Shown one piece after another: positions 3,843 to 49,291 of a stretch of DNA of 64,000 nt (its first letter is position 1; each line of letters starts with the position of its first letter). Both the position numbers and the translations under genes were made by a program. Under the pieces are notes generated by a model, which was not told the DNA's origin, ran no database searches, and was given only the letters and a program-made list of their open reading frames with translations. Origin of the DNA: Rhodospirillaceae bacterium (GTDB lineage Bacteria > Pseudomonadota > Alphaproteobacteria > Rhodospirillales > UBA2165); NCBI GenBank assembly GCA_002723345.1, contig PBNV01000031.1, forward strand, positions 115,953-179,952, written 5' to 3'.

Positions 3843-4081
3843 AGGGTCAGGGGCAAGGTCCGTCTGACGGACCTACAGTGAAATTAGGCAAAGAGGATTG
3901 TTGTGCGAACGCCGGATTATATACAACACGAAAATCAGCTTAGGCCAGAGGCTTGGCTGCTTTTCCAATATGCTTCCTTTACGCCCGCTGGCACAAGAAT
4001 TCCGCGGCTACCGTTGCAATTGGCACCAAGGGTGGGGTAAGTAAAAGCAGCTTATGTGCTTGATGGAGAGAAGACATTCTC

Positions 4082-4678
4082 GTGCGGGGATTTTTTGGTA
4101 TTGGTGTGGAGTGCGTGAGCAAATCCATGAACGTGGGAAGTTTGTTCCGCTCAGCGCACGCTTTTGGCGCGGGCTTCGTCTTCACTGTTGACGCCCAATA
4201 TGATAGAGGCGAGGGCCGCAAGGCGGACACGTCAGGCACACCGGACCACGTGCCATTTTACAGCTTTCCTGATGTGGAAAGTCTTGTTTTGCCGGCCCGC
4301 TGCGAGTTAGTTGGCATTGAACTAGTTCCTGACAGCTGGGAGCTTCCCAGCTTCCGTCATCCGAACCAGGCAGCTTATGTCTTGGGACCAGAGCGGGGCA
4401 GCCTGTCTCCCGCGATTCAGGCACGTTGCGCATACATTGTTCAAATTCCGACGAAGTTCTGCGTCAATGTAGGCATTGCAGGCGCCATAGTCATGTATGA
4501 CCGAGTCATTAGTTTGGGTAAGTACCCGCGCCGGCCGGTTACGCCTGGGGGCCCTCTGGAATCCCTGCCCAAGCATGTATTTGGGGGTCCTTCACTACGG
4601 CGTAAAATGGATGCGTATCGGGCCGATAGTCCTTTGGCTGAGTTGGACGAATACCTGGAGACCGTGAGCGAATTATGA
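4082..4678 (+). CDS. SpoU/TrmH-family RNA 2'-O-methyltransferase
   Basis: 198 aa. N-terminus is FFGIGVECVSKSMNVGSLFRSAHAFGA and the C-terminal region is IPTKFCVNVGIAGAIVMYD, typical of SPOUT methyltransferases. GTG start. Confidence 0.7.
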   Translation: MRGFFGIGVECVSKSMNVGSLFRSAHAFGAGFVFTVDAQYDRGEGRKADTSGTPDHVPFYSFPDVESLVLPARCELVGIELVPDSWELPSFRHPNQAAYVLGPERGSLSPAIQARCAYIVQIPTKFCVNVGIAGAIVMYDRVISLGKYPRRPVTPGGPLESLPKHVFGGPSLRRKMDAYRADSPLAELDEYLETVSEL

Positions 4679-5181
4679 TCAAAAGCATTTTAATACCGAT
4701 AGCAGTTTCACTTGTTTTTATCGCTGATACTGCGGCGGCTCAGACTGTTATTAAAACTACCGGAGACTGGAGTGTGCTCAAGTACGGTAGCGGTGAATCC
4801 CGCAGTTGTTATATCGCGAGTGCCCCGCAAGAGGAGACCGGTAACTACAAGCGCCGGGGTGATACCTTCGTGATGGTAACCCACAGGCCGGGGGAGGGCA
4901 CCCGGGATGTTTTCGAACTCCGGGCTGGTTATTCCTACAAAAAGGGCTCTTCTGTTACGGTGGTTATCGACGGCCAAAAATTCGATCTTTTCACCCAGGG
5001 CAGTACGGCCTGGGCTAAGGATGAAAAAACTGATAGAGCCCTTGCCCGCGCCATGATTAGGGGCCGTAAAATGACGGTAACGGGCACGTCGAGTCGGGGC
5101 ACGAAGACAGTTGATGTCTACTCTCTCAGCGGCTTCACCGCCGCCTACAAGACTATCGGCCGCGACTGCGGCGTGAAGTAG
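4675..5181 (+). CDS. Invasion-associated locus B (IalB)-family periplasmic protein
   Basis: 168 aa with a signal peptide ([17 protein letters not shown]) and the motif GDWSVLKY...SCYIASAP. It sits immediately upstream of rlmN, a common alphaproteobacterial position. Its ATGA start/stop overlaps the previous gene. Confidence 0.65.
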
Positions 5182-5188
5182 GGGCGGT

Positions 5189-6289
5189 GTGATCGAAAGC
5201 CAAAAACCCAATCTGATCGGATTGAGCAGAAATGAATTGGTGGCCGAAATGGTGCGCCTGGATGAGAAACCTTTCCGCGCTAAGCAATTGTGGCATTGGA
5301 TATATTTCCGGGGCGCTACCAGCTTTGCTGAAATGACCACCCTTTCCGGCACTCTTCAGGAAAAACTGGGGACGAACTTCGTCATCGAGCGACCGATTAC
5401 AGTTACCGAACAACTCTCAGCGGACGGCACCCGAAAATGGCTTTTGCGCACAAGGGATGGTAATGAAGTGGAGTCGGTCTATATCCCGGAGGAAGATCGC
5501 GGGGCGCTGTGCATTTCGAGTCAGGTTGGCTGCACACTCACTTGCTCTTTTTGCCACACCGGCACTCAACGTATGGTTCGGAATTTGACCGCCGCAGAGA
5601 TTGTTGGACAAATGATGGTAGCCCGCGACACTTACGCTGAGTGGCCATCCCCGGCGGACAGGCGGTTGCTCTCCAATGTTGTGATGATGGGCATGGGCGA
5701 GCCTTTGTATAATTTTGACGCTGTGGCCAAGGCGATCAGGATCATCATGGATCCCGAAGGATTAGCGCTCTCAAAGCGTCGCATCACCCTGTCCACATCG
5801 GGTCTCGTGCCTATGATCAAGCGCGTGGGGGATGAGTTAGGCGTAGGCCTTGCCATCTCCCTCCATGCGGTTCGGGATGACCTCCGCAACGAGTTGGTTC
5901 CAATAAATAAAAAGTACCCTATCGAGGAATTGCTGGCAGCCTGCCGTGCATATCCTGGTGCCAACAATGCCCGCCGAATTACTTTTGAATACGTCATGCT
6001 GGACGGCGTGAATGATTCGGAGGCCGACGCTTACGAACTAGCCAGACTTTTGCGAAACATTTACGCAAAGGTAAACCTCATTCCATTTAATAAATGGCCT
6101 GGGGCGAAATACGACTGCTCGCCTCCTCATAAAATCAAGAGATTTTCTGAAATTCTGAACAGGCATGAGCTTTCTGCGCCCATCCGCGTACCCCGCGGCC
6201 GGGATATCATGGCCGCATGTGGGCAGCTTAAAAGTGCGAGCGAACGCACGCGGGGGAAAGATCGCACGCTATTGGCGGTTGCACAGTGA
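5189..6289 (+). CDS. rlmN: 23S rRNA/tRNA adenine-C2 methyltransferase RlmN (radical SAM)
   Basis: 366 aa with the radical-SAM cluster motif [12 protein letters not shown], the sequence [10 protein letters not shown], and the C-terminal AACGQL with the catalytic Cys. Confidence 0.9.
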
Positions 6290-38955: not shown

Positions 38956-40110
38956 TTATTTTTTTACTATGTCATAAATCAACTCGGAGCCCCTTTTGGC
39001 ACTTTGGCCGATATTAAATACAGTTTTGTCCCGCAAAGCTCGAATTTGTGTGACAAATTTCTCTGAGTCTTCCATAATTTCTGTCACGACATCTGTCACG
39101 TTGTCTAACTTCTCTTTCCCAAGAATTATGCCAATCTTATCACGCGCACTAATTTCAATGGGAATATTTTCTAACTCCGTGTAACGTGGATTATTTATTT
39201 TTTTGGGAACGTCAATGAATATGACGGGCCGCTCTAAGCCGAAGGCAAACTCTAAACTGACGCCCGACCAGTCACTTATTAATACATCGGCTTTGATCAA
39301 ACTCTCAAAAATAGCGTTATCCATATCCATTTCAAAATTTGGATGACTATTAAAGTTCGCAGCTAAGAGTTTCACATTTTTGGCAGATTTGATCCTGCTT
39401 TGCGGGTGAAGCCGCAACGTCACATAATGTCCCGCATCCAGTAGCGACCCAACTAATTCTTTTGCACCATTTTCAATCAAGCCCTCTGACCCCCATGATG
39501 GGGCAACTAATACGTTATAATTCGAGGTTGCTGGTTTTGAAATAAGGGGCTGCGAAGATACCATATCCAGAATGGTGTCTAATGGTGCGTATCCATGTTC
39601 ATACAAATTTTTTTCTGGGAGATTATTCAATTTCTCCCATTCGCGAATTTCCGATACATGGTGGGATCCGGAGCACAAAATTGTGTCAAAGTGATCAAAA
39701 GCCCCTGGCTTGTAAACCATGTGAGAACTCACAAGAGAGTGTTGCAAATAGATATAGTGGACCGGGTAACGCGATCGTTTAATATGAAAGGAGTGAAGGT
39801 CAGGCATTGTCATCACTAAGACCTTGGCCTTTAAGGTTTGAAAGGCAAATATCATTGCGCTTCCCCAACCTACATATACTGATTTTACATTCTCTGGTGG
39901 TTCCGAGAGCAACGGGTCATCTTGATCAGAGGTTAAATAACAAATTCTTAAATTATGATCCTCTGTTAAATGGGACATTACTGGCAAAAGAAAACCGTGG
40001 TATGCCCCCCCCTCCGAGTAAAATACCAAGTTTTTATCTTCCAAAGGTAGCGACCGCAGTTCAATGCACCCACGCCAAGATGCAATAAACGATTGGAAAT
40101 ATTTAAGCAC
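38956..40110 (-). CDS. TagF-like CDP-alcohol (glycero/ribitol)phosphotransferase family protein
   Basis: YNVLVAPSWGSEG matches the family APTWR-type motif. ADVLISDWSGVSLEFAFGLERPVIFIDVP matches the LITDYSS...F motif. The start is uncertain: the track start at 40203 overlaps the tRNA, so I suggest the GTG at 40110 (MLKYFQSF...). Confidence 0.7.
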   Translation of the reverse strand: MLKYFQSFIASWRGCIELRSLPLEDKNLVFYSEGGAYHGFLLPVMSHLTEDHNLRICYLTSDQDDPLLSEPPENVKSVYVGWGSAMIFAFQTLKAKVLVMTMPDLHSFHIKRSRYPVHYIYLQHSLVSSHMVYKPGAFDHFDTILCSGSHHVSEIREWEKLNNLPEKNLYEHGYAPLDTILDMVSSQPLISKPATSNYNVLVAPSWGSEGLIENGAKELVGSLLDAGHYVTLRLHPQSRIKSAKNVKLLAANFNSHPNFEMDMDNAIFESLIKADVLISDWSGVSLEFAFGLERPVIFIDVPKKINNPRYTELENIPIEISARDKIGIILGKEKLDNVTDVVTEIMEDSEKFVTQIRALRDKTVFNIGQSAKRGSELIYDIVKK

Positions 40111-40164
40111 TTTCAAACCAGGCAAAACAATACAGTTTTGTTTAGAGACTTCGGCCCATAAGAA

Positions 40165-40240
40165 TGGTGCCGCCTGGGTGACTTGAACACCCGACCCTCG
40201 CATTACGAATGCGATGCTCTACCAACTGAGCTAAGGCGGC
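40165..40240 (-). tRNA. tRNA-Thr (anticodon CGU), with encoded CCA
   Basis: The minus strand reads GCCGCCTTAGCTCAGTTGGTAGAGCATCGCATTCGTAATGCGAGGGTCGGGTGTTCAAGTCACCCAGGCGGCACCA. It folds into a perfect cloverleaf: 7-bp acceptor, GCTC/GAGC D stem, TCGCA/TGCGA anticodon stem with loop TTCGTAA, and GGGTG/CACCC T stem with a TTCAAGT loop. Confidence 0.95.
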
Positions 40241-40291: not shown

Positions 40292-41758
40292 TCATTGGTC
40301 CGTCATCCCGCGGACTCTCTGACTTAAGCTAGCGCGGGCTGCGGATATCACGCCTGCCCAATCTCCCGGCGATGTTTGCCTGAATAGCCGAGCTGACGGG
40401 TACCACGGCGTAGTTTTGCCGTGGTACCACCGCCAATCAGGGTCATGATGCAGCAGCACCCAGACGGGTTTTCCAAGCGCGCCTGCCAGATGCGCGACGG
40501 CTGTGTCAGAGGTGATGACCAGATCCAGGGCGTTGATCATTCCGGCCGTATCTTCTAACGATGCCGGGCCGGTGTCGATAATGGGGAAGTCTACTGGCAA
40601 CGGTGGGGCCGGTGTTTGGCCTTTCTGCAAGCTAAACCAAATGACCTTGTTATTTTCGGCTAGCGTCATCAATTGGTCCACTGGGAGCCGCCGCCGTTTC
40701 TCTACTGGATTATTCGAATTGCCACTCCAGTTCAGGCCAATCTTCAAGCCGTCATACTGGCTTAGTTTTTTTTGCCAGGTTACATAATGATTCACAGGAA
40801 CACGTATGTATGGCGTTGCGCGGAACAAGTCAGGACCGCGCAATTGACACAGCCGTGGTACATCCATCAAGGGGGCATGGACGTCAAAATTTGAGCTCGT
40901 CTCTGCTGGCCGCTGGATTTCATCGGCGAGATGGCTCTCCTCGGCAATGGGGATCAGTGTCTCGGGTAGTTCCAAAATAACACGGCCGCCGGTGGCTTTG
41001 AGAGCAGACACAAACCGCAGCATAAACAGCATGTCGCCGAGCCCTTGCTCGGGATATACCAATATGGTCCGCCCGTTAAGATTATTTCCGGTCCATTCCG
41101 GTTGGTCAAAGGATGACCGCCGACCGGGAAATTTGGGCCAGCGCCAGCGCCAGTTCATCTCGCGAAAGCCGTCTTCATAGCGTCCCGCGCTCAATAGAGC
41201 GAGCGAGAGGTTCCAATGAGCAAGCGCAAAATCCGGGTCAAGGTCGATGGCTTTTTGGTAACTGGCAAGGCTGTCGTCAACCAGGCCAACGTCTTTTTCG
41301 GCATTGCCAAGATTATTAAGCGTTTCTGGATCCGACCCAGCAATAGCAGCGGCCCGCCGGGCGTAATCAAGGCCCGAAACGATGTCTCCGGCATTACGAC
41401 ATGCGCTGGCTAAATTACTGAGCGCCCTCGAGTGCTCCGGATTAAGCCTTATCGCAGAGCGAAAGCTCCGTTCTGCAGCTTCCTCCTGACCTTGCTCACG
41501 CAATGCTATGCCCAGATTGTTATGATAATCGGCGACATCATTTTTGATGGATAAAGCCATACTAATTAGCCGAACGGCAAGACGGTTATCGCCTTTCTGC
41601 ATCGCTGCGACACCCAGAAGGTGCCATAAGTCCGGATGATCTGGGTGCTCGTCTAGCAGGTTGTGGTACAGGCCGATTGCCTGATCAAGGTCGCCAGATA
41701 CTTGCAGTTGAATCGCGTTCTGCAAAGTTGCAGTGAAGGCTTGGCTAGGGTCTGCCAT
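40292..41758 (-). CDS. TPR-repeat protein fused to a glycosyltransferase family 9 (heptosyltransferase-like) domain
   Basis: 488 aa. The N-terminal half has repeated TPR units (e.g. AIRLNPEHSRALSNLA, AIDLDPDFALAHWNLS). The C-terminal half has LVITSDTAVAHLAGALGKPVWVLL, typical of GT9. Confidence 0.7.
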   Translation of the reverse strand: MADPSQAFTATLQNAIQLQVSGDLDQAIGLYHNLLDEHPDHPDLWHLLGVAAMQKGDNRLAVRLISMALSIKNDVADYHNNLGIALREQGQEEAAERSFRSAIRLNPEHSRALSNLASACRNAGDIVSGLDYARRAAAIAGSDPETLNNLGNAEKDVGLVDDSLASYQKAIDLDPDFALAHWNLSLALLSAGRYEDGFREMNWRWRWPKFPGRRSSFDQPEWTGNNLNGRTILVYPEQGLGDMLFMLRFVSALKATGGRVILELPETLIPIAEESHLADEIQRPAETSSNFDVHAPLMDVPRLCQLRGPDLFRATPYIRVPVNHYVTWQKKLSQYDGLKIGLNWSGNSNNPVEKRRRLPVDQLMTLAENNKVIWFSLQKGQTPAPPLPVDFPIIDTGPASLEDTAGMINALDLVITSDTAVAHLAGALGKPVWVLLHHDPDWRWYHGKTTPWYPSARLFRQTSPGDWAGVISAARASLSQRVRGMTDQ

Positions 41759-41769
41759 GGCCTACGATG

Positions 41770-43218
41770 TTACTTTTCTTTTTGATCCCGGGCGACGCGC
41801 TGATCCGAGGGATTAGGCGGCTCTATAATATCGAGGTGGTCAGGCCCGTCCTCGTTATCCAAAGTTTGCATGATTTCGGACCCCGCGTGGTTCAGCGTGT
41901 TTGTCGCGATTTCACTATCAATCCGCGTTACGCGCGGCGGTATCTTCCACTCCAACGTGTCAAATTTTTCGCACCGGGTGCAAATCGGTTCCCATTCTGC
42001 AGCAGCGTTTCCACAATCATTACAAAGCCAGACTGGGTCTGGATCGGCAACAGACGCCCGTTTTAACCATTCCCGTGACGCGTCCACATCATTGTGCTCG
42101 GCCTCTTCAAGTTCTGCCATATAGCGGCATACGCGTGCCGAGGGGTGAATTTGCACCGTTGCCAGAAGATGCTCCCGGGCCTCCTGCCACATGCCGGCGG
42201 CGAGTGCGGCCCTGGCAATGGCGAGGTGGCTCTCCTCGTGATCATTATTGTAAGCTGCCAGCCGTTCAATCGTGCGCATTTTCTCTTGCGGACCCGCGCC
42301 CGAGGCCAGTTCTCCCATCACATCTGCCAAGTGAGGGTGCGGATTGGAAACCCAAATCTCTTCGATGATTGCAGCTGCCTTCCGGCGTTTACCGGCGCTT
42401 TGCAGCAGACGGGCCGTCCGGATTGCGGCTGGTACGAAATCTGGTGCTAAATTATTGGCCCTCTGAGCATGGCGTAGGGCGTCGCCCAGCTTTCCATCGT
42501 TTTCCTCTTCTAGGCTGCGCTGAAACAGCATCAGCGCTCGCCTTCGCCGTCCTGTCGTGCCGTCAACAGTCTTATTCTTGATGGACTTTTTGACCGTCTC
42601 TTCTGCTCTCTCCCAGTCCTGTTTTTTGATTTGTAGATCCAAAAGTGTGGCGGTTGCGGTTTCTGTCTTTGGTTTGAGATTGCTGGCTTGTTCCGCCAAC
42701 TCCAGCGCGCCGTCCTGATCGCCATCTTCCATGGCCTGTTTGAGTTTACCGCTCAAGCCCAAATATTTTGTCTCGGGTTGCTCCGCCATGGCATCAAAGA
42801 ATTTCCCGGCCGCTTTTTCGTCCCCCGATAATTGAGCGGCTTGGGCAGAGAGCAGCATGGTGAGGGGAGGCTCGGCAAGCAGCGCCTCTGCTTTTCGGGA
42901 CAGGCGGCGGGCTTCGACTGCATCGCCTGCAGCGACGGCCACCATGCCCTGGGTAAGGGCTTTGTATCCTCGTTGCCGGCGCCAGTCCTGGCGAGCCCGG
43001 TCGATGCGCCGGGGCGCGCGCCGCAAAAATGACCAGATCCGAAGCGCGGACGCCAAAAGAAAAGAGAGGACGAAGAGCGCCGCGAAAAGGATGCCGACGG
43101 AGGCCTCAATTTTATATCCCAGCCACTGCATGGACATTTGACCGGGATTGTCCGCCAGTAGGGCGGCGCCAAGACTGAATGCTGCCAGCAGGAGAAGAAA
43201 CCAAAATGCTCGAAACAT
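41770..43218 (-). CDS. hemY: HemY-like protein (HemY_N membrane domain, TPR region, C-terminal zinc ribbon)
   Basis: The N-terminus MFRAFWFLLLLAAFSLGAALLADNPGQMSMQWLGYKIEASV is the HemY_N pattern. The C-terminus is CNDCGNAAAEWEPICTRC. It occupies the conserved position after hemC-hemD-mic60. Confidence 0.8.
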   Translation of the reverse strand: MFRAFWFLLLLAAFSLGAALLADNPGQMSMQWLGYKIEASVGILFAALFVLSFLLASALRIWSFLRRAPRRIDRARQDWRRQRGYKALTQGMVAVAAGDAVEARRLSRKAEALLAEPPLTMLLSAQAAQLSGDEKAAGKFFDAMAEQPETKYLGLSGKLKQAMEDGDQDGALELAEQASNLKPKTETATATLLDLQIKKQDWERAEETVKKSIKNKTVDGTTGRRRRALMLFQRSLEEENDGKLGDALRHAQRANNLAPDFVPAAIRTARLLQSAGKRRKAAAIIEEIWVSNPHPHLADVMGELASGAGPQEKMRTIERLAAYNNDHEESHLAIARAALAAGMWQEAREHLLATVQIHPSARVCRYMAELEEAEHNDVDASREWLKRASVADPDPVWLCNDCGNAAAEWEPICTRCEKFDTLEWKIPPRVTRIDSEIATNTLNHAGSEIMQTLDNEDGPDHLDIIEPPNPSDQRVARDQKEK

Positions 43219-43225
43219 AAGATGG

Positions 43226-45106
43226 TTACTCGTTTGCGGCCAGTAAGGCGACAGCTCTGATTTGTAATCGGTCCAGGAAGTTGTTTACGGAAATCAAAGC
43301 TTCAGCATTTTTAAGCCATGGCGCCGCCTTTGTGGCAGGAGCGGCTGTGAGTGTTTTGAGTTCTGCCACAGCATCGGCTAAGTCAGACCGTCCTAGGGAG
43401 CGCTCTGCCCGAGCAACGATGGCTTCCACGTCAGTACCGTTGAAGTCGTCGGTTCGGCGCCATTTCAGAGTCTGGGCGAGCCGGGCAAGCGTGCGGTCCA
43501 TTAAGCCCTTCCCCTTGGGTAAATTTTCCGCCTGAACAATGGCGCCGGCCAACACTGTGAATTCTTGACGCAATTGACTTAGGCTAGGCACCCCTTTTTT
43601 AGCGGCTTCTGAAAGGCCGGTAATGGCCTCTGAGAGGTCGGTGTCATCAAGTTTGAGATTCTTTAAAATTTCAAGCTCTCCCGAGAATGATCGGCCGGCG
43701 TGGGCAGCGGTTCGGAGTTGAACCACGGCAAGAAGAAAAGCTCGTACTTTTGCACTGTTATCTGCCGTCCCTGCCGATGGGACTTTCGTCTCCATAGTGG
43801 CCATTTTTTGCGTCAGCAGGCCCAGTCGTTTTCGAGTTTCCGAAGCCATCGACTCTTTGGTCGCCTCCAAAAGAGTGAGACGTTCAGAGAGTTTCTTTAA
43901 CGTCGCTTCTGCTGAGTCGGAGCCCTTGCTGGTATCCACTGCATTAATCATCGATTTTACCGAGTTGAGGGATCCTTCGAGAGATCTGATACGAGTAAGG
44001 GTAGCGTCTAGTTGGGATTGGAGCAGGTTCCGTTCTTTTTGCAATTCGTTGAGTTTGGGGAGGCTCTCCTTTGATTTGGACTCAAGTTTCAGAAGCCGGC
44101 TCGTTAGAGCATTTAACTGATCGGTCGTTGAGTCACCAAAGATTGGCAATGGGACAAAATCTCGGAGCTTGGGCACCCACAGGTCTGACGTGGCCGCACC
44201 AGCACCGATGGTAAAGGCGGAAAAGAGAAGCGTTATAAAGACGGTTCGAAATGTGTGACTTTTTTGACTTTGCTGGGATTTTACCTCAGGCGCTGGCGGG
44301 CGTTCTCCTGAGCCGTGTACTGGCGATGTTTTCTTTGGCGATACGTTATTTTGCACGTATTGTTCCCTCTCCAATGCCAGCTCAGACGCCGTTTTACCCT
44401 TGGTATCTTCGAGCGCCTGTAGCAAAGCATCTTGTGTGGGTGCTTTCGCTACTAGGCATTCTCGCCAGCTCAGATCAGAGGCTTTTTCTGCCACGGCAGG
44501 GCTCAAGCAAATTAAAGTAAGATGTTTTGCTACCCGGACCAATCTGGATTTCCTGAGTAGTTTAACAAATGTTTCGGCCGTTCGCGGAGAATAAAGCAGA
44601 ACCGTCTTGATCTTCCCACTCTTGATGCCCGCAATGGTCTCGGGACTGAGTGATTTGGTAGGTTCAGATTTATAAAGAACGTGTAGCCGGCATTCGAAAC
44701 CTGCTGTTTCCAAGGTCTCTTTCAGGAGCCCTGCTCGCACCGAACCAGCAGCGTGATAAAGTGCACCATTTTTCGGGTCGAGCATTTCTGTGGCCATCGC
44801 GGCAAGCGCGCCCACGTCACCCTCAGCACTATGAACCTGGGCGAACCCCAAATCACGCGCGGTGTTAGCGGTTGCATCTCCAACTGCATAAAGTGGGATA
44901 GACATGTTTGGTTTGCGGTTAAACAGGGCCCGCACGCCATTGGAGCTTGTTGCTAAATAAGCCTGAACACCACTCGTATCGATATCGGGCCCGTCTCGAA
45001 GATTGACCACCAAAAGCGGCTCATGGAGCCCGTCATAGCCCAGTTCCGTCAAGCGGGCCATTAGGGCCTCTCCATCTGTGCCGGGTCTAGTGACAAGGAC
45101 ACGCAT
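43226..45106 (-). CDS. hemD: Uroporphyrinogen-III synthase (HemD) fused in one ORF to an alphaproteobacterial Mic60/mitofilin-like protein
   Basis: 626 aa from the ATG at 45106, preceded by AGGAGG with a 9-nt spacer. Residues about 1-245 are HemD-like (MRVLVTRPGTDGEAL...LLYSPRTAETF). Next come a Pro/Ser/Gln linker, one TM segment (TVFITLLFSAFTIGAGA), and coiled-coil sequence. The C-terminus is mitofilin-type (AERSLGRSDLADAVAELKTL...APWLKNAEALISVNNFLDRLQ). Confidence 0.75.
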   Translation of the reverse strand: MRVLVTRPGTDGEALMARLTELGYDGLHEPLLVVNLRDGPDIDTSGVQAYLATSSNGVRALFNRKPNMSIPLYAVGDATANTARDLGFAQVHSAEGDVGALAAMATEMLDPKNGALYHAAGSVRAGLLKETLETAGFECRLHVLYKSEPTKSLSPETIAGIKSGKIKTVLLYSPRTAETFVKLLRKSRLVRVAKHLTLICLSPAVAEKASDLSWRECLVAKAPTQDALLQALEDTKGKTASELALEREQYVQNNVSPKKTSPVHGSGERPPAPEVKSQQSQKSHTFRTVFITLLFSAFTIGAGAATSDLWVPKLRDFVPLPIFGDSTTDQLNALTSRLLKLESKSKESLPKLNELQKERNLLQSQLDATLTRIRSLEGSLNSVKSMINAVDTSKGSDSAEATLKKLSERLTLLEATKESMASETRKRLGLLTQKMATMETKVPSAGTADNSAKVRAFLLAVVQLRTAAHAGRSFSGELEILKNLKLDDTDLSEAITGLSEAAKKGVPSLSQLRQEFTVLAGAIVQAENLPKGKGLMDRTLARLAQTLKWRRTDDFNGTDVEAIVARAERSLGRSDLADAVAELKTLTAAPATKAAPWLKNAEALISVNNFLDRLQIRAVALLAANE

Positions 45107-45110
45107 TAAA

Positions 45111-46103
45111 CTAGTCCTCCTGTGCAATTTCAGGGTGCGGCCTTATGATCTTTGGCCGCTCATTATCGATTGCCTCGAGAATACTCGTTCCAGCCTGAGC
45201 CAACAAATTTTCCGCTACGGAACGGCCAAGCTCCCTCGCGCTTGTAATAGGCGCGCTCATTGAAAAACGCGTCGATTCGGTTCCATCAGGCCTGGCGATT
45301 AGACCTTGCATATCGATATTGCCTTTACCATCAGGTAAGGCCAGCCCTGCGATGGGTGTATGGCAGGATCCGTCGAGTAGGACAAGCATGGCACGCTCTG
45401 CGATGATCGCAGCGGTGGCCGGCGGCTCTCCTAGATTTGCTAGCATCGCGTTGGTCCCATGGTCATCCATCCGGCAGGTTGCCGCGAGTGACCCCTGACC
45501 TACAGCAGGCAACATCACGTCGGTTTCCAATATTTCCGTGATCACATTTTCTTTGCCCAGTCGTTTTAAGCCAGCATAGGCAAGGAGAGTCGCGTCAGCC
45601 TCGCCGTCCGTGATTTTTTTGAGCCGCGTGTCCACATTTCCTCGCAAGGGAACAACCCTCAAATCTGGTCTGGCAATAAGAACCTGGCATTTGCGGCGGA
45701 GAGAGGCCGTGCCTAGAGTTGCGCCTTTTGGCAATTCTATAAAAGATGCGTATTTTTCGGAAATGAAAGCGTCTCTGACGTCTTCGCGCGGCATGATAGC
45801 GTGCAAGGCGATGTTCTCGGGCAAAAATGTGGGCATGTCTTTCATGGAATGAATGCCGAGATCGATTTGATCGTTTAGAAGGGCTTCGTCCAGCTCCTTG
45901 GTGAACATTCCTTTGCCGCCGATTTCCGAGAGCAAACGGTTTTGGATGCGGTCTCCGGTTGTCGTTATTACAACCATCTCAATGGCATTTTTTTTTCTCA
46001 ACGATGGATGTGCTTTCTGCAGAGAATCTATAACCTTACTGGTTTGGATGAGGGCCAGCGGACTGCCGCGGGTGCCAATTCTGAGGGGACCAATATCATT
46101 CAT
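45111..46103 (-). CDS. hemC: Hydroxymethylbilane synthase (porphobilinogen deaminase)
   Basis: 330 aa with LRIGTRGSPLALIQT, ALLNDQIDLGIHSMKDMPT, RGNVDTRL, and the cofactor-Cys region LLDGSCHTPIAG. Confidence 0.95.
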   Translation of the reverse strand: MNDIGPLRIGTRGSPLALIQTSKVIDSLQKAHPSLRKKNAIEMVVITTTGDRIQNRLLSEIGGKGMFTKELDEALLNDQIDLGIHSMKDMPTFLPENIALHAIMPREDVRDAFISEKYASFIELPKGATLGTASLRRKCQVLIARPDLRVVPLRGNVDTRLKKITDGEADATLLAYAGLKRLGKENVITEILETDVMLPAVGQGSLAATCRMDDHGTNAMLANLGEPPATAAIIAERAMLVLLDGSCHTPIAGLALPDGKGNIDMQGLIARPDGTESTRFSMSAPITSARELGRSVAENLLAQAGTSILEAIDNERPKIIRPHPEIAQED

Positions 46104-46264: not shown

Positions 46265-47335
46265 GTGATTATGCTCGGAATTGAGACCAGTTGTGACGAG
46301 ACGGCTGCTGCAGTTGTTCAAGACTCGATCGACCCGTCGACCCGTATTTTATCAAATGTGGTGCAGTCGCAACACCGGCAGCATCGGCCGTTTGGCGGAA
46401 TTGTCCCCGAGATCGCGGCGCGAAGCCACTTACAGCATGTAGACGAGGTCATAAATGCCGCGATGTCGGACGCGGCAGTCGGGTTCGGTGATTTGGACGG
46501 TGTTGCAGCGACTGGGGGGCCAGGCCTGATAGGCGGTGTTATTGTTGGCGTTACGTCTGCAAAGGGCATCGCATTGGCCAGGGATATTCCATTTCTTGCA
46601 ATTAATCATCTTGCGGGGCATGCCCTGACGGCGCGGCTCACCCATGATGTTGACTTTCCTTATTTGCTGCTCCTCGTCTCGGGAGGTCACACACAGCTTC
46701 TCATTGTAAATGGTGTTGCAGATTATGAGCGCCTAGGCACCACAGTCGACGACGCCGTAGGCGAGGCTTTTGACAAATCAGCCAAACTTCTGGGTCTCGG
46801 GTATCCTGGTGGCCCCGAAATTGAAAAAGAGGCAATCAAGGGGGATCCCCGTAAGATTAGTTTGCCCCGACCCATGAAAGGCAGGGACTCGTGCAATTTT
46901 TCATTTTCTGGGCTAAAGACGGCTGTGAGAAACAAGGTGCGAGAGTTAAGAGATCGAGGGCTCGATGAACGGGATATTGAAAATCTTTGTTCCTCTTTTC
47001 AGGCGGCTGTTGCCGATGTCATGGCCGATCGGAGCCGACGAGCAGCGGAGGTGTTCAAACGAAAAAACCCTGAAGGGCAACACCTGGTTGTTGCCGGCGG
47101 AGTGGCCGCAAATCTAGCCTTGCGGGGGTCGCTAGAGAAGGTTGCTTTGCAAGCGGGCCTGAAATTGATCGCACCCCCACCCGCGCTCTGTACTGATAAT
47201 GGTGCCATGATCGCCTGGGCTGGTTTAGAACGGATGGCACAGGGGCTAACTTCGGATCTGGCATTCGCGCCCCGGCCCAGATGGCCCTTGGACCCAAGAG
47301 CGCCAGCGGTTGGCGGTGCAGGGGTGAAAGCGTGA
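46265..47335 (+). CDS. tsaD: tRNA N6-adenosine threonylcarbamoyltransferase TsaD
   Basis: 356 aa with [31 protein letters not shown], and GGVAAN. Confidence 0.95.
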
Positions 47336-47393
47336 CTTGCAGCCCAGGGGTGGGGCGGGCATAGTTTTTTAACGGCCATGTTCGGGGATTATC

Positions 47394-48386
47394 ATGAGTA
47401 AGATTGGTATAATTGGCGCAGGCGCCTGGGGTACGTCCCTCGCAACTGTAATGCGGCGTGCGGGAAATGAGGTTGTGTTGCAAGCTCACGAGCCGGAGAC
47501 AGCGGCCGCGATTAACAAAAGCCATACCAATCCAGACTTTTTGCCTGAAATTGAACTGGATCCAGAGATCAGAGCCGTTACAGCCTTAAGTGAAGTGGTT
47601 GATGCGGATGCAGTGCTTCGGGTGGCGCCGGCGCAGCACCTCCGCGCGATTTGTGATGCTGCCGAGCCGTATTGGCCCGACTCTGTTCCCGCGATTATTT
47701 GCGCCAAAGGGATTGAACAGCGAACCTGCGCTTTAATGAGTGAGGTTGTTTCAGTGGCCCTGCCGCGAAAACAGATCGCTGTTTTGTCGGGGCCGACATT
47801 TGCGATTGAGGTGGCTCGGGACCTTCCGACGGCCGTAACGTTGGCATGTCACGATGAGAACCTAGTGAAAATTCTTATGGAGCAAATAAACACTCGGCAT
47901 TTCCGGATTTACAGATCCTCTGATGTTGTTGGTGCGCAGATCGGCGGGGCCATCAAGAACGTTCTTGCCATTGCATGTGGTATCGTCGAAGGCCGGGGCT
48001 TGGGAGAAAATACTCGAGCGGCACTCGTAACGCGTGGGCTCGCGGAGATGATGCGCATCGGAGTGGCGAAGGGAGCAAAACCTGAGACCCTTTCTGGTCT
48101 CTCGGGCTTGGGGGACCTGACCCTGACTTGCAATGCCATGCAATCCCGAAATTTTTCCCTCGGCGTCAGATTTGGCCAAGGGCAAAGCCTCAATCAAATA
48201 TTGTCTAATCGAAAATCCGTCGCGGAGGGGGTGTTCACAGCAGCATCGGTCTCGGACCTTGCGCGGAAAATTGGCGCGGAGGTTCCCATTTGCAGCGCAG
48301 TCGACAAAGTAATTAACCACGGCGAAGAAATCGAGCTTGTCATCTCCGGTCTGCTATCCAGACCGCTGAAGGAAGAAACGGCTTAA
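47394..48386 (+). CDS. gpsA: NAD(P)H-dependent glycerol-3-phosphate dehydrogenase
   Basis: 330 aa with IGIIGAGAWGTSLA, KGIE, SGPTFAIEVA, GGAIKNVLAIACGI, and GLGDLTLTC. Confidence 0.9.
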   Translation: MSKIGIIGAGAWGTSLATVMRRAGNEVVLQAHEPETAAAINKSHTNPDFLPEIELDPEIRAVTALSEVVDADAVLRVAPAQHLRAICDAAEPYWPDSVPAIICAKGIEQRTCALMSEVVSVALPRKQIAVLSGPTFAIEVARDLPTAVTLACHDENLVKILMEQINTRHFRIYRSSDVVGAQIGGAIKNVLAIACGIVEGRGLGENTRAALVTRGLAEMMRIGVAKGAKPETLSGLSGLGDLTLTCNAMQSRNFSLGVRFGQGQSLNQILSNRKSVAEGVFTAASVSDLARKIGAEVPICSAVDKVINHGEEIELVISGLLSRPLKEETA

Positions 48387-48434
48387 GGAAACATCGGGCC
48401 ATGGCCAAGAAATAGAGAGCATGGATTATTTTCG

Positions 48435-48950
48435 ATGATTTTTGACTGGCTCAAACAGACCTCCGATAACCAGGCAGGTAATTCAAGCCTGAGAGAAGTT
48501 ACAGGTTTTATTGACGGCCTGCGGTCTATGACAGATGAAGATATGGGGGTTGTAATCGCTGTCGCGACCGTCATTCGGGTGAGCATGGAAAAAGAGGGCT
48601 TTTTGCCTAAGGGACTGTTTAATGAATCAACATTGCCGTCTTCGGTGGCCTTAAGCAACTATCAGGTCGACCTCCATAAATTAGTTCGCCGGTTTAATAA
48701 ACAAGGTCAACCAACGGATGCCGTGGCGGCATTGGTGATCTCTCATTCCCTTCGATGTTTGAATGTGCCTGATCTCCGGGAATACGGAAGGGACATGTGG
48801 CAAACCCTCTCGAGAGGGTTTCCGCATGCAGAAAAAGCCTTGAGAGACGGCGAAGAGGCAAAAGGGAAGCCATTTCCAAAAAGGGTCTGGAAAGAATGGC
48901 GGACCATCCCCCTAGGATTGAAACCCCGCGAGACTTCGGAGGATTCATGA
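48435..48950 (+). CDS. Hypothetical protein
   Basis: 171-aa ORF with plausible composition. Its stop overlaps the start of the next gene (ATGA at 48947..48950), which suggests translational coupling. I recognise no family. Confidence 0.45.
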   Translation: MIFDWLKQTSDNQAGNSSLREVTGFIDGLRSMTDEDMGVVIAVATVIRVSMEKEGFLPKGLFNESTLPSSVALSNYQVDLHKLVRRFNKQGQPTDAVAALVISHSLRCLNVPDLREYGRDMWQTLSRGFPHAEKALRDGEEAKGKPFPKRVWKEWRTIPLGLKPRETSEDS

Positions 48951-49291
48951 GCCGCACTGTTTTGTGCCAATTAGAAGATATTGAGGACGGCGGCAGTGCC
49001 GGATTCACGTCACAGGTGGATGGCAAGCCGCGCATGCTGCTTGCGGTTCGCAGAGGAAAGGACGTTTTCGTCTACATCAACTCCTGCCCCCATCTTGGCG
49101 TCCCATTGGATTTTCATGCCGGTCAATTCCTGAGCCACGACCAGAAGTATATCATATGCTCAACTCATGGGGCGTTGTTTGAGATTGAAAATGGTCTGTG
49201 TGTCTCAGGTCCATGTCGCAATGCATATTTAAAACCTGTCATGGTATCGGTCGAGGAAAGGTCAGTCTTGATTGACGGAAACCAGCTCTAA
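48947..49291 (+). CDS. Small Rieske [2Fe-2S] domain protein
   Basis: 114 aa from the ATG at 48947, with CPHLGVPLD...CSTHGALF (the CxH...CxxH Rieske ligands). The track's longer start at 48797 overlaps the upstream ORF. Confidence 0.75.
   Translation: MSRTVLCQLEDIEDGGSAGFTSQVDGKPRMLLAVRRGKDVFVYINSCPHLGVPLDFHAGQFLSHDQKYIICSTHGALFEIENGLCVSGPCRNAYLKPVMVSVEERSVLIDGNQL

Follow-up and report, generated by a model that had tools for sequence, protein, structure and literature searches.

Mic60 (mitofilin) is, to our knowledge, the one subunit of the mitochondrial contact site and cristae organizing system (MICOS) that can be traced to the Alphaproteobacteria, and we know of no bacterial Mic10 or Mic19 partners. 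In Alphaproteobacteria the gene order hemC–hemD–mic60–orf52 has been described (PMC7641849; bioRxiv 10.1101/2022.06.14.496148), and Muñoz-Gómez et al. reported occasional HemD–Mic60 fusions among the Rhodospirillales, Kiloniellales and Rhizobiales (bioRxiv 10.1101/2022.06.14.496148; Figs 1A, 2A; their reference 20). In the published fusions a membrane anchor is predicted at mid-point, so that HemD would be cytoplasmic and Mic60 periplasmic (bioRxiv 10.1101/2022.06.14.496148), and as far as found in our literature search the fusion is described only there. Here we analyse a fused hemD::mic60 open reading frame (ORF) carried by a 64,000-nucleotide stretch of contig PBNV01000031.1 from a Rhodospirillaceae bacterium, hereafter referred to as the window.

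This ORF is very probably a genuine and conserved gene fusion within a hemC–hemD–mic60–orf52 operon, its product being one bitopic inner-membrane protein. This reading builds on the observed identities of the two domains, an open and conserved frame, the gene order and the uneven charge on the two sides of the transmembrane (TM) helix; the job of each half is deduced. The window protein falls into the published class of fusions (one ORF, mid-point anchor, Rhodospirillales-type host) and shares with its members both domains, their order, hemC upstream and orf52 downstream, and the topology of the anchor. It differs from them in nothing substantive, the window copy coming from an uncultured marine Rhodospirillales-like lineage. 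The architecture is already known, and the window adds one confirmed example and data on distribution, that is, the apparent fixation of the fusion in one deep clade, its scatter elsewhere and, in about half of the loci where the genes are separate, a lone in-frame stop codon between them, with no new principle.

Free-standing alphaproteobacterial Mic60 proteins, such as those of R. sphaeroides and R. palustris and of the Azospirillum/Skermanella loci surveyed here (L037-L081), have the same TM helix, helical stretch and C-terminal mitofilin domain and occupy the same slot between hemD and orf52, but are encoded by a separate gene with its own start and measure roughly 350-630 residues (aa). 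Mitochondrial Mic60, the MICOS core (7pv1), shares the C-terminal signature and the order of anchor, helical stretch and mitofilin domain. In contrast to it, the window protein lacks a presequence and carries the HemD enzyme domain ahead of the anchor, and sequence similarity is undetectable outside the last ~70-190 residues. HemX of Gammaproteobacteria, encoded in the post-hemD slot of the hemCDXY operon, is also a bitopic, coiled-coil-rich membrane protein and has been described as a distant Mic60 homologue without a mitofilin domain (bioRxiv 10.1101/2022.06.14.496148), whereas the window protein has a bona fide one. A Pfam search with the window protein returned no match to the HemX family at E<0.1. 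Proteins annotated in NCBI as 'fused HemD/HemX' in some Betaproteobacteria would represent an analogous fusion.

Domain architecture and predicted topology

The initial annotation of this DNA had described positions 43226-45106 as one ORF, with no stop codon between a complete uroporphyrinogen-III synthase domain and a Mic60 part, and had listed a low-complexity linker, a single TM helix, a long coiled-coil region and a C-terminal mitofilin-type domain. All these parts were recovered in a single ORF at accurate coordinates, on the minus strand (Table 1), the helical region being only read as coiled coil.

The uroporphyrinogen-III synthase domain is full-length, Pfam HEM4 (PF02602) aligning to aa 15-230 over positions 3-231 of the 231 in the profile (115.7 bits versus a cut-off of 27.5, E=2.2e-33). 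An AlphaFold model built from 34 homologues reaches a predicted local distance difference test (pLDDT) value of ~90 in this part, and Foldseek matched the model to the solved HemD structures 4es6, 3re1 and 3mw8 (E ~3e-12; target-normalised TM-score 0.64-0.75), in agreement with the two-domain HemD fold. Nine residues that are invariant in 34 aligned fusion proteins (T6, R7, S54, N56, G57, G76, Y145, S173 and P174) are kept in the window protein. Synonymous/non-synonymous differences in the HemD codons amount to 53/28 and 75/40 against two relatives, 84% and 75% identical, indicating that this portion is under purifying selection. Given the retained residues, this selection and the position after hemC, the domain is predicted to be catalytically competent.

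In the C-terminal region, Pfam Mitofilin (PF09731) matched aa 428-613 (62.7 bits versus a cut-off of 27.4, E=4.5e-17), so that a profile hidden Markov model bears out the mitofilin-like character first proposed. The family profile also aligned to the solved Mic60 structure 7pv1_A, in which Mic60 is fused to Mic19 (E=1.9e-10 and 1.3e-10), and this alignment spans the motif vRrtd..G..veavvARAE..L..gdl..A..el..L.g....WL.dAr, residue by residue. G505, L512, R550, E568 and W597 are invariant, and F516 is nearly so (at least 90% of homologues). The pLDDT of the region is 80-92 in the whole model and 84 in a model of the C-terminal region only. Three pre-mitofilin helices (aa 448-470, 489-504 and 509-528) show moderate hydrophobic moments of 0.47-0.48. 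In Mic60 proteins, LBS1 is an amphipathic lipid-binding helix with a conserved Phe that precedes the mitofilin domain (F573 in C. thermophilum, F327 in R. sphaeroides). Closer to the membrane, the AlphaFold model contains helices at aa 327-345, 351-389 and 396-440, with weak coiled-coil matches in Pfam and NCBIfam and a profile match to coiled-coil structures at positions ~320-445. This order, one TM anchor and then a coiled coil predicted to face the periplasm, is the arrangement expected of a Mic60 protein.

The linker between the two halves has pLDDT values <50 at aa 243-284, differs in length and sequence among the aligned homologues and evolves fast, with synonymous/non-synonymous differences of 6/21 and 7/26 against the same two relatives. 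Its frame is open and free of insertions or deletions (indels) in close relatives, and the remaining two frames contain stops. Since the TM helix of free-standing Mic60 proteins is preceded by an N-terminal tail that ranges from tens to hundreds of residues, the linker would correspond to the native cytoplasmic tail of Mic60. In the AlphaFold model the TM segment is covered by a helix (aa 285-317). The 30 residues on the N-terminal side of the TM helix hold six K+R versus two in the 30 on the C-terminal side, and by the positive-inside rule this bias predicts an N-in/C-out orientation, with HemD in the cytoplasm, the side where HemC makes its substrate, and the Mic60 part in the periplasm. The two folded domains would be unable to touch, because the membrane separates them.

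Table 1. Features of the hemD::mic60 fusion and adjoining genes in the window
Feature	Positions	Strand	Remarks
hemD::mic60 fused ORF	43226..45106	-	626 codons + TAA stop (43226-43228); uninterrupted
Uroporphyrinogen-III synthase (HemD/HEM4) domain	44402..45106	-	aa 1-235; predicted cytoplasmic
Disordered low-complexity linker	44252..44401	-	aa 236-285; S/E/T/K/Q/P-rich, without any Met
Shine-Dalgarno (SD)-like GGAGAGGG, 8 nt, then GTG (V251)	44354..44372	-	candidate internal start in linker
Single TM helix FRTVFITLLFSAFTIGAGAATSD	44183..44251	-	aa ~286-308
Helical region read as coiled coil, predicted periplasmic	43787..44128	-	aa 327-440
C-terminal Mic60 region (pre-mitofilin helices + mitofilin domain)	43229..43771	-	aa 446-626
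Shine-Dalgarno AGGAGG	45116..45121	-	inside 3' end of hemC, 9 nt upstream of ATG 45106
hemC (hydroxymethylbilane synthase)	45111..46103	-	directly upstream; TIGR00212 351 bits versus cut-off 164; Pfam Porphobil_deam
orf52/'hemY' (HemY_N + tetratricopeptide repeat (TPR) membrane protein)	41770..43218	-	7 nt past mic60 stop; Pfam HemY_N E=3.7e-25
TPR + GT9-like gene	40292..41758	-	11 nt past orf52; Pfam TPR families + Glyco_transf_9

Conservation of the fusion and competing readings

A search of a 5.8-billion-protein collection returned 168 homologues, 120 of which were listed, and PF02602 and PF09731 occur together in 108 of the 120 homologous clusters listed (538-890 aa, 30-100% identity). The two-domain homologues include that of Shumkonia mesophila and those of many Rhodospirillales metagenome-assembled genomes (MAGs), and are named 'uroporphyrinogen-III synthase' or 'hypothetical protein' by their sources. 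One NCBI entry (P0001) is 100% identical to the window product; the exact window protein is not on record on public contigs. Tara Oceans and other marine metagenome contigs encode the 84% and 75% identical proteins, both of exactly 626 codons and with identical synteny, and codon-by-codon comparison with them revealed no indels. The initial annotation had advised checking the region at about 44350-44450 for frameshift errors, and the chance that a stop codon was lost or a frameshift introduced there during sequencing or assembly, with hemD and mic60 being truly separate genes, is practically negligible. One homologue, P0010, appears to be a Mic60-only protein of exactly 376 aa and would fit such an artefact, but its frame is open upstream into the HemD C-terminus and its source contig, of 1.8x coverage, is probably chimeric. 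The fusion is present in more than 100 independent clusters and in 16/16 members of the clade of the window, and the conservation of the fusion in independent assemblies at 75-84% identity, with identical synteny and all 626 codons free of indels, excludes a sequencing error. No other close relative seemed to have a stand-alone Mic60; P0010 was also considered as a natural one and rejected, being a gene-calling artefact that starts from the linker GTG of V251. On its contig (L001; ERZ840881 NODE_68947), positions 1-320 are unrelated to hemD and adjoin HemD C-terminal coding sequence.

Several points weigh against a single bitopic protein made of an active HemD and a Mic60. The TM helix is of modest hydrophobicity (Kyte-Doolittle 19-residue maximum of 1.68), and the single product of ~68 kDa is a prediction from the ORF. 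Foldseek gave no match in the PDB better than E=0.37 for the C-terminal-only model, the solved fragment being a short helical chimera, and only HemD matches surfaced for the whole model; the mitofilin assignment therefore rests on sequence and profile evidence. NCBIfam HemD equivalog models were matched below their cut-offs, the best being PRK09189 (138 bits versus 223), and the search for a second hemD covered the 64-kb window, where neither another hemD nor another mic60 was found. The shortfall against the equivalog models and the confinement of that search to 64 kb would suit a HemD-like domain that is a non-catalytic relic, retained as the cytoplasmic domain of Mic60, with the real HemD encoded elsewhere in the genome. 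We consider this highly improbable. The PRK09189 shortfall is a matter of divergence from the seed set of the model and not evidence against membership in the HEM4 family, the HEM4 profile is covered in full and the modelled fold matches solved enzymes. Also, the residues invariant among fusion proteins are retained, synonymous differences outnumber non-synonymous ones in the HemD codons, and the domain is encoded at the canonical place of hemD, directly behind hemC, to which its translation appears to be coupled. The 64-kb window itself holds no second hemD. A different possibility is that the one ORF gives rise to two products, a free HemD and an anchored Mic60, either by internal initiation at V251 or by proteolysis of the linker, so that the fusion would be a mere transcriptional or translational convenience. 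The window shares the SD-like motif and GTG involved with its relative at 84% identity, but the relative at 75% identity has lost the motif, which also has no equivalent in the linkers of more distant homologues. The disordered and weakly constrained nature of the linker would agree with two products, as would the transcription start site located between hemD and mic60 in R. sphaeroides (bioRxiv 10.1101/2022.06.14.496148), but no promoter-like site was found on the coding strand of the linker. Moreover, the frame has been kept through very different linkers in a deep clade. An irrelevant covalent link would not lead one to expect this, although neutral fusions could persist as well. Taken together, two products are unlikely and the internal start at V251 is probably non-functional; the idea of a conserved internal start in the linker was rejected on the loss of the motif at 75% identity and the lack of a promoter-like site there.

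In the genuine fusion that we favour, loss of the hemD stop codon would most likely have produced a protein consisting of a cytoplasmic uroporphyrinogen-III synthase, a flexible linker of ~50 residues, one TM helix and a periplasmic Mic60 part, the latter running from a coiled-coil-like helical stretch through the pre-mitofilin helices to the mitofilin domain. The HemD half would cyclise the hydroxymethylbilane made by HemC. The Mic60 half would bind or shape the inner membrane and contact the outer membrane, for instance through BamA, as reported in R. sphaeroides, where Mic60 bends membranes and interacts with BamA (bioRxiv 10.1101/2022.06.14.496148). What the fusion would add is that HemD is tethered to the membrane and necessarily co-expressed 1:1 with Mic60, with no contact between the domains. 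The early suggestion that a physical tie between HemD and Mic60 bears on the conserved synteny stands as far as covalent anchoring and co-expression are concerned, but not with respect to contact between domains that lie on opposite sides of the membrane, and the predicted topology thereby makes it less plausible that direct physical cooperation within the fusion accounts for the synteny. No HemD–Mic60 interaction was found in R. sphaeroides, where the genes are separate (bioRxiv 10.1101/2022.06.14.496148).

Mic60 is constantly linked to heme genes, and a fusion is the classic 'Rosetta stone' type of hint that two proteins are functionally connected. An interaction between MICOS and ferrochelatase has been reported in yeast, and the HemD–Mic60 fusion echoes it. 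A functionally selected fusion, kept while a deep marine Rhodospirillales-like clade diversified because HemD tethered at Mic60-marked sites would organise the late cytoplasmic part of tetrapyrrole synthesis along the inner membrane, is in our estimate unlikely; it is compatible with the evidence, none of which specifically supports it. HemC might take part in such an arrangement, as might the Orf52 TPR protein, provided that most of it lies in the cytoplasm. If true, the arrangement would parallel in bacteria the MICOS–ferrochelatase link reported in mitochondria.

Distribution among related loci

The fusion had at first been taken as unusual, the two genes being normally separate; it is instead published and fairly common. 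A search with the Mic60 half recovered 4614 representatives of 50%-identity clusters at E<=1e-3, and a HemD domain is also present in 29 of the best 150. In a survey of 80 species-level genome loci, seeded with a HemD motif, a single fused ORF was found in 24, including all 12 nearest relatives, a Reyranella sp. and a Dongiaceae MAG, and adjacent separate genes in 42 (Azospirillum, Skermanella, Magnetovibrio, Thalassospiraceae). The remaining 14/80 loci gave no Mic60 match, for some of them on account of a contig end, and the fused share where both parts were found is thus 24/66. An apparent fusion in Azospirillum/Skermanella was rejected, tblastn having joined two genes that are separate by ORF analysis. 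The nearest species-level genomes are only ~44% identical, and those that are named are Rhodospirillales/Rhodospirillaceae MAGs.

In a rough neighbour-joining tree of HemC+HemD+Orf52, built with no support values, the window lies within a deep clade formed by the 16 fused loci mentioned above. The fusion thus looks fixed, rather than occasional, in this deep marine Rhodospirillales-like clade. The fused loci outside it are interspersed with unfused ones at five or more positions of the same tree, suggesting repeated fusion and fission. Also, when the sequence is read on past the hemD stop, the very next codon already belongs to an open mic60 frame in ~20 of the 42 loci with separate genes (L015, L016, L020, L025, L028, L030, L046, L048, L066, L068, L071-L074, L076-L078, L081 and others), which in a raw comparison exceeds the one-third expected for frame alone. 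With a single in-frame stop between the genes, one point mutation would interconvert the fused and unfused states.

A separate case is the chromosome of Defluviicoccus vanus Ben 114 (L042, ~3935-5965), where the HemD ORF extends to 453 aa and a mitofilin match lies directly downstream in another frame. This could be a recent frameshift splitting a former fusion, or an assembly error.

Translation start, operon and neighbouring genes

The longest frame of the fused gene spans 43226..45127 (-) and encodes 633 aa from a TTG, whereas the ATG at 45106 yields 626 aa beginning with MRVLVTRPG, which is the N-terminus of the aligned homologues. Given this common N-terminus and the AGGAGG upstream, translation likely begins at this ATG. 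It follows the hemC stop by 4 nt, and the location of the AGGAGG within the end of hemC suggests that translation of the fused ORF is coupled to that of hemC.

hemC, the fused gene, orf52 and the TPR+GT9-like gene lie on one strand, with gaps of 4-11 nt after hemC, and the order hemC – hemD – mic60 – orf52(HemY_N) is that of the canonical alphaproteobacterial operon. An orf52 gene is located downstream in nearly all surveyed loci. In the clade of the window the operon likely ends with the TPR+GT9-like gene; this gene is kept at the post-orf52 position only in the nearest relatives (L002-L009, L012, L082, L084) and may have been added to the operon in this clade alone.

The N-terminus of Orf52 has two hydrophobic segments (aa ~4-22 and ~41-63) followed by a strongly K/R-rich stretch, RRAPRRIDRARQDWRRQRGYK, and its C-terminus a CxxC-x10-CxxC motif (aa ~397-423). 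Matches to the LapB zinc ribbon in Pfam (E=0.026) and to LapB NCBIfam models (E=2.6e-14) are both under the cut-offs. By the positive-inside rule the TPR bulk would be cytoplasmic, as in LapB; according to published work, the bulk of Orf52 seems to face the periplasm (bioRxiv 10.1101/2022.06.14.496148).

Upstream, tsaD and gpsA (46265-49291, +) are divergent and head-to-head with hemC, an arrangement described in Alphaproteobacteria together with YciI and EVE genes after gpsA (PMC7641849). Neither of the latter was found in the two ORFs that follow gpsA in the window, the first of which (48435-48950) has no Pfam match and the second (48797-49291) encodes a Rieske [2Fe-2S] protein. At the other end, the TPR+GT9-like gene is followed by a tRNA-Thr(CGT) (40165-40240, -) that overlaps the 5' end of an ORF at 38956-40203 (-), listed with 415 aa and encoding a Glyphos_transf-like protein. 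Because of this overlap, the true start of the latter gene would lie downstream of the tRNA.

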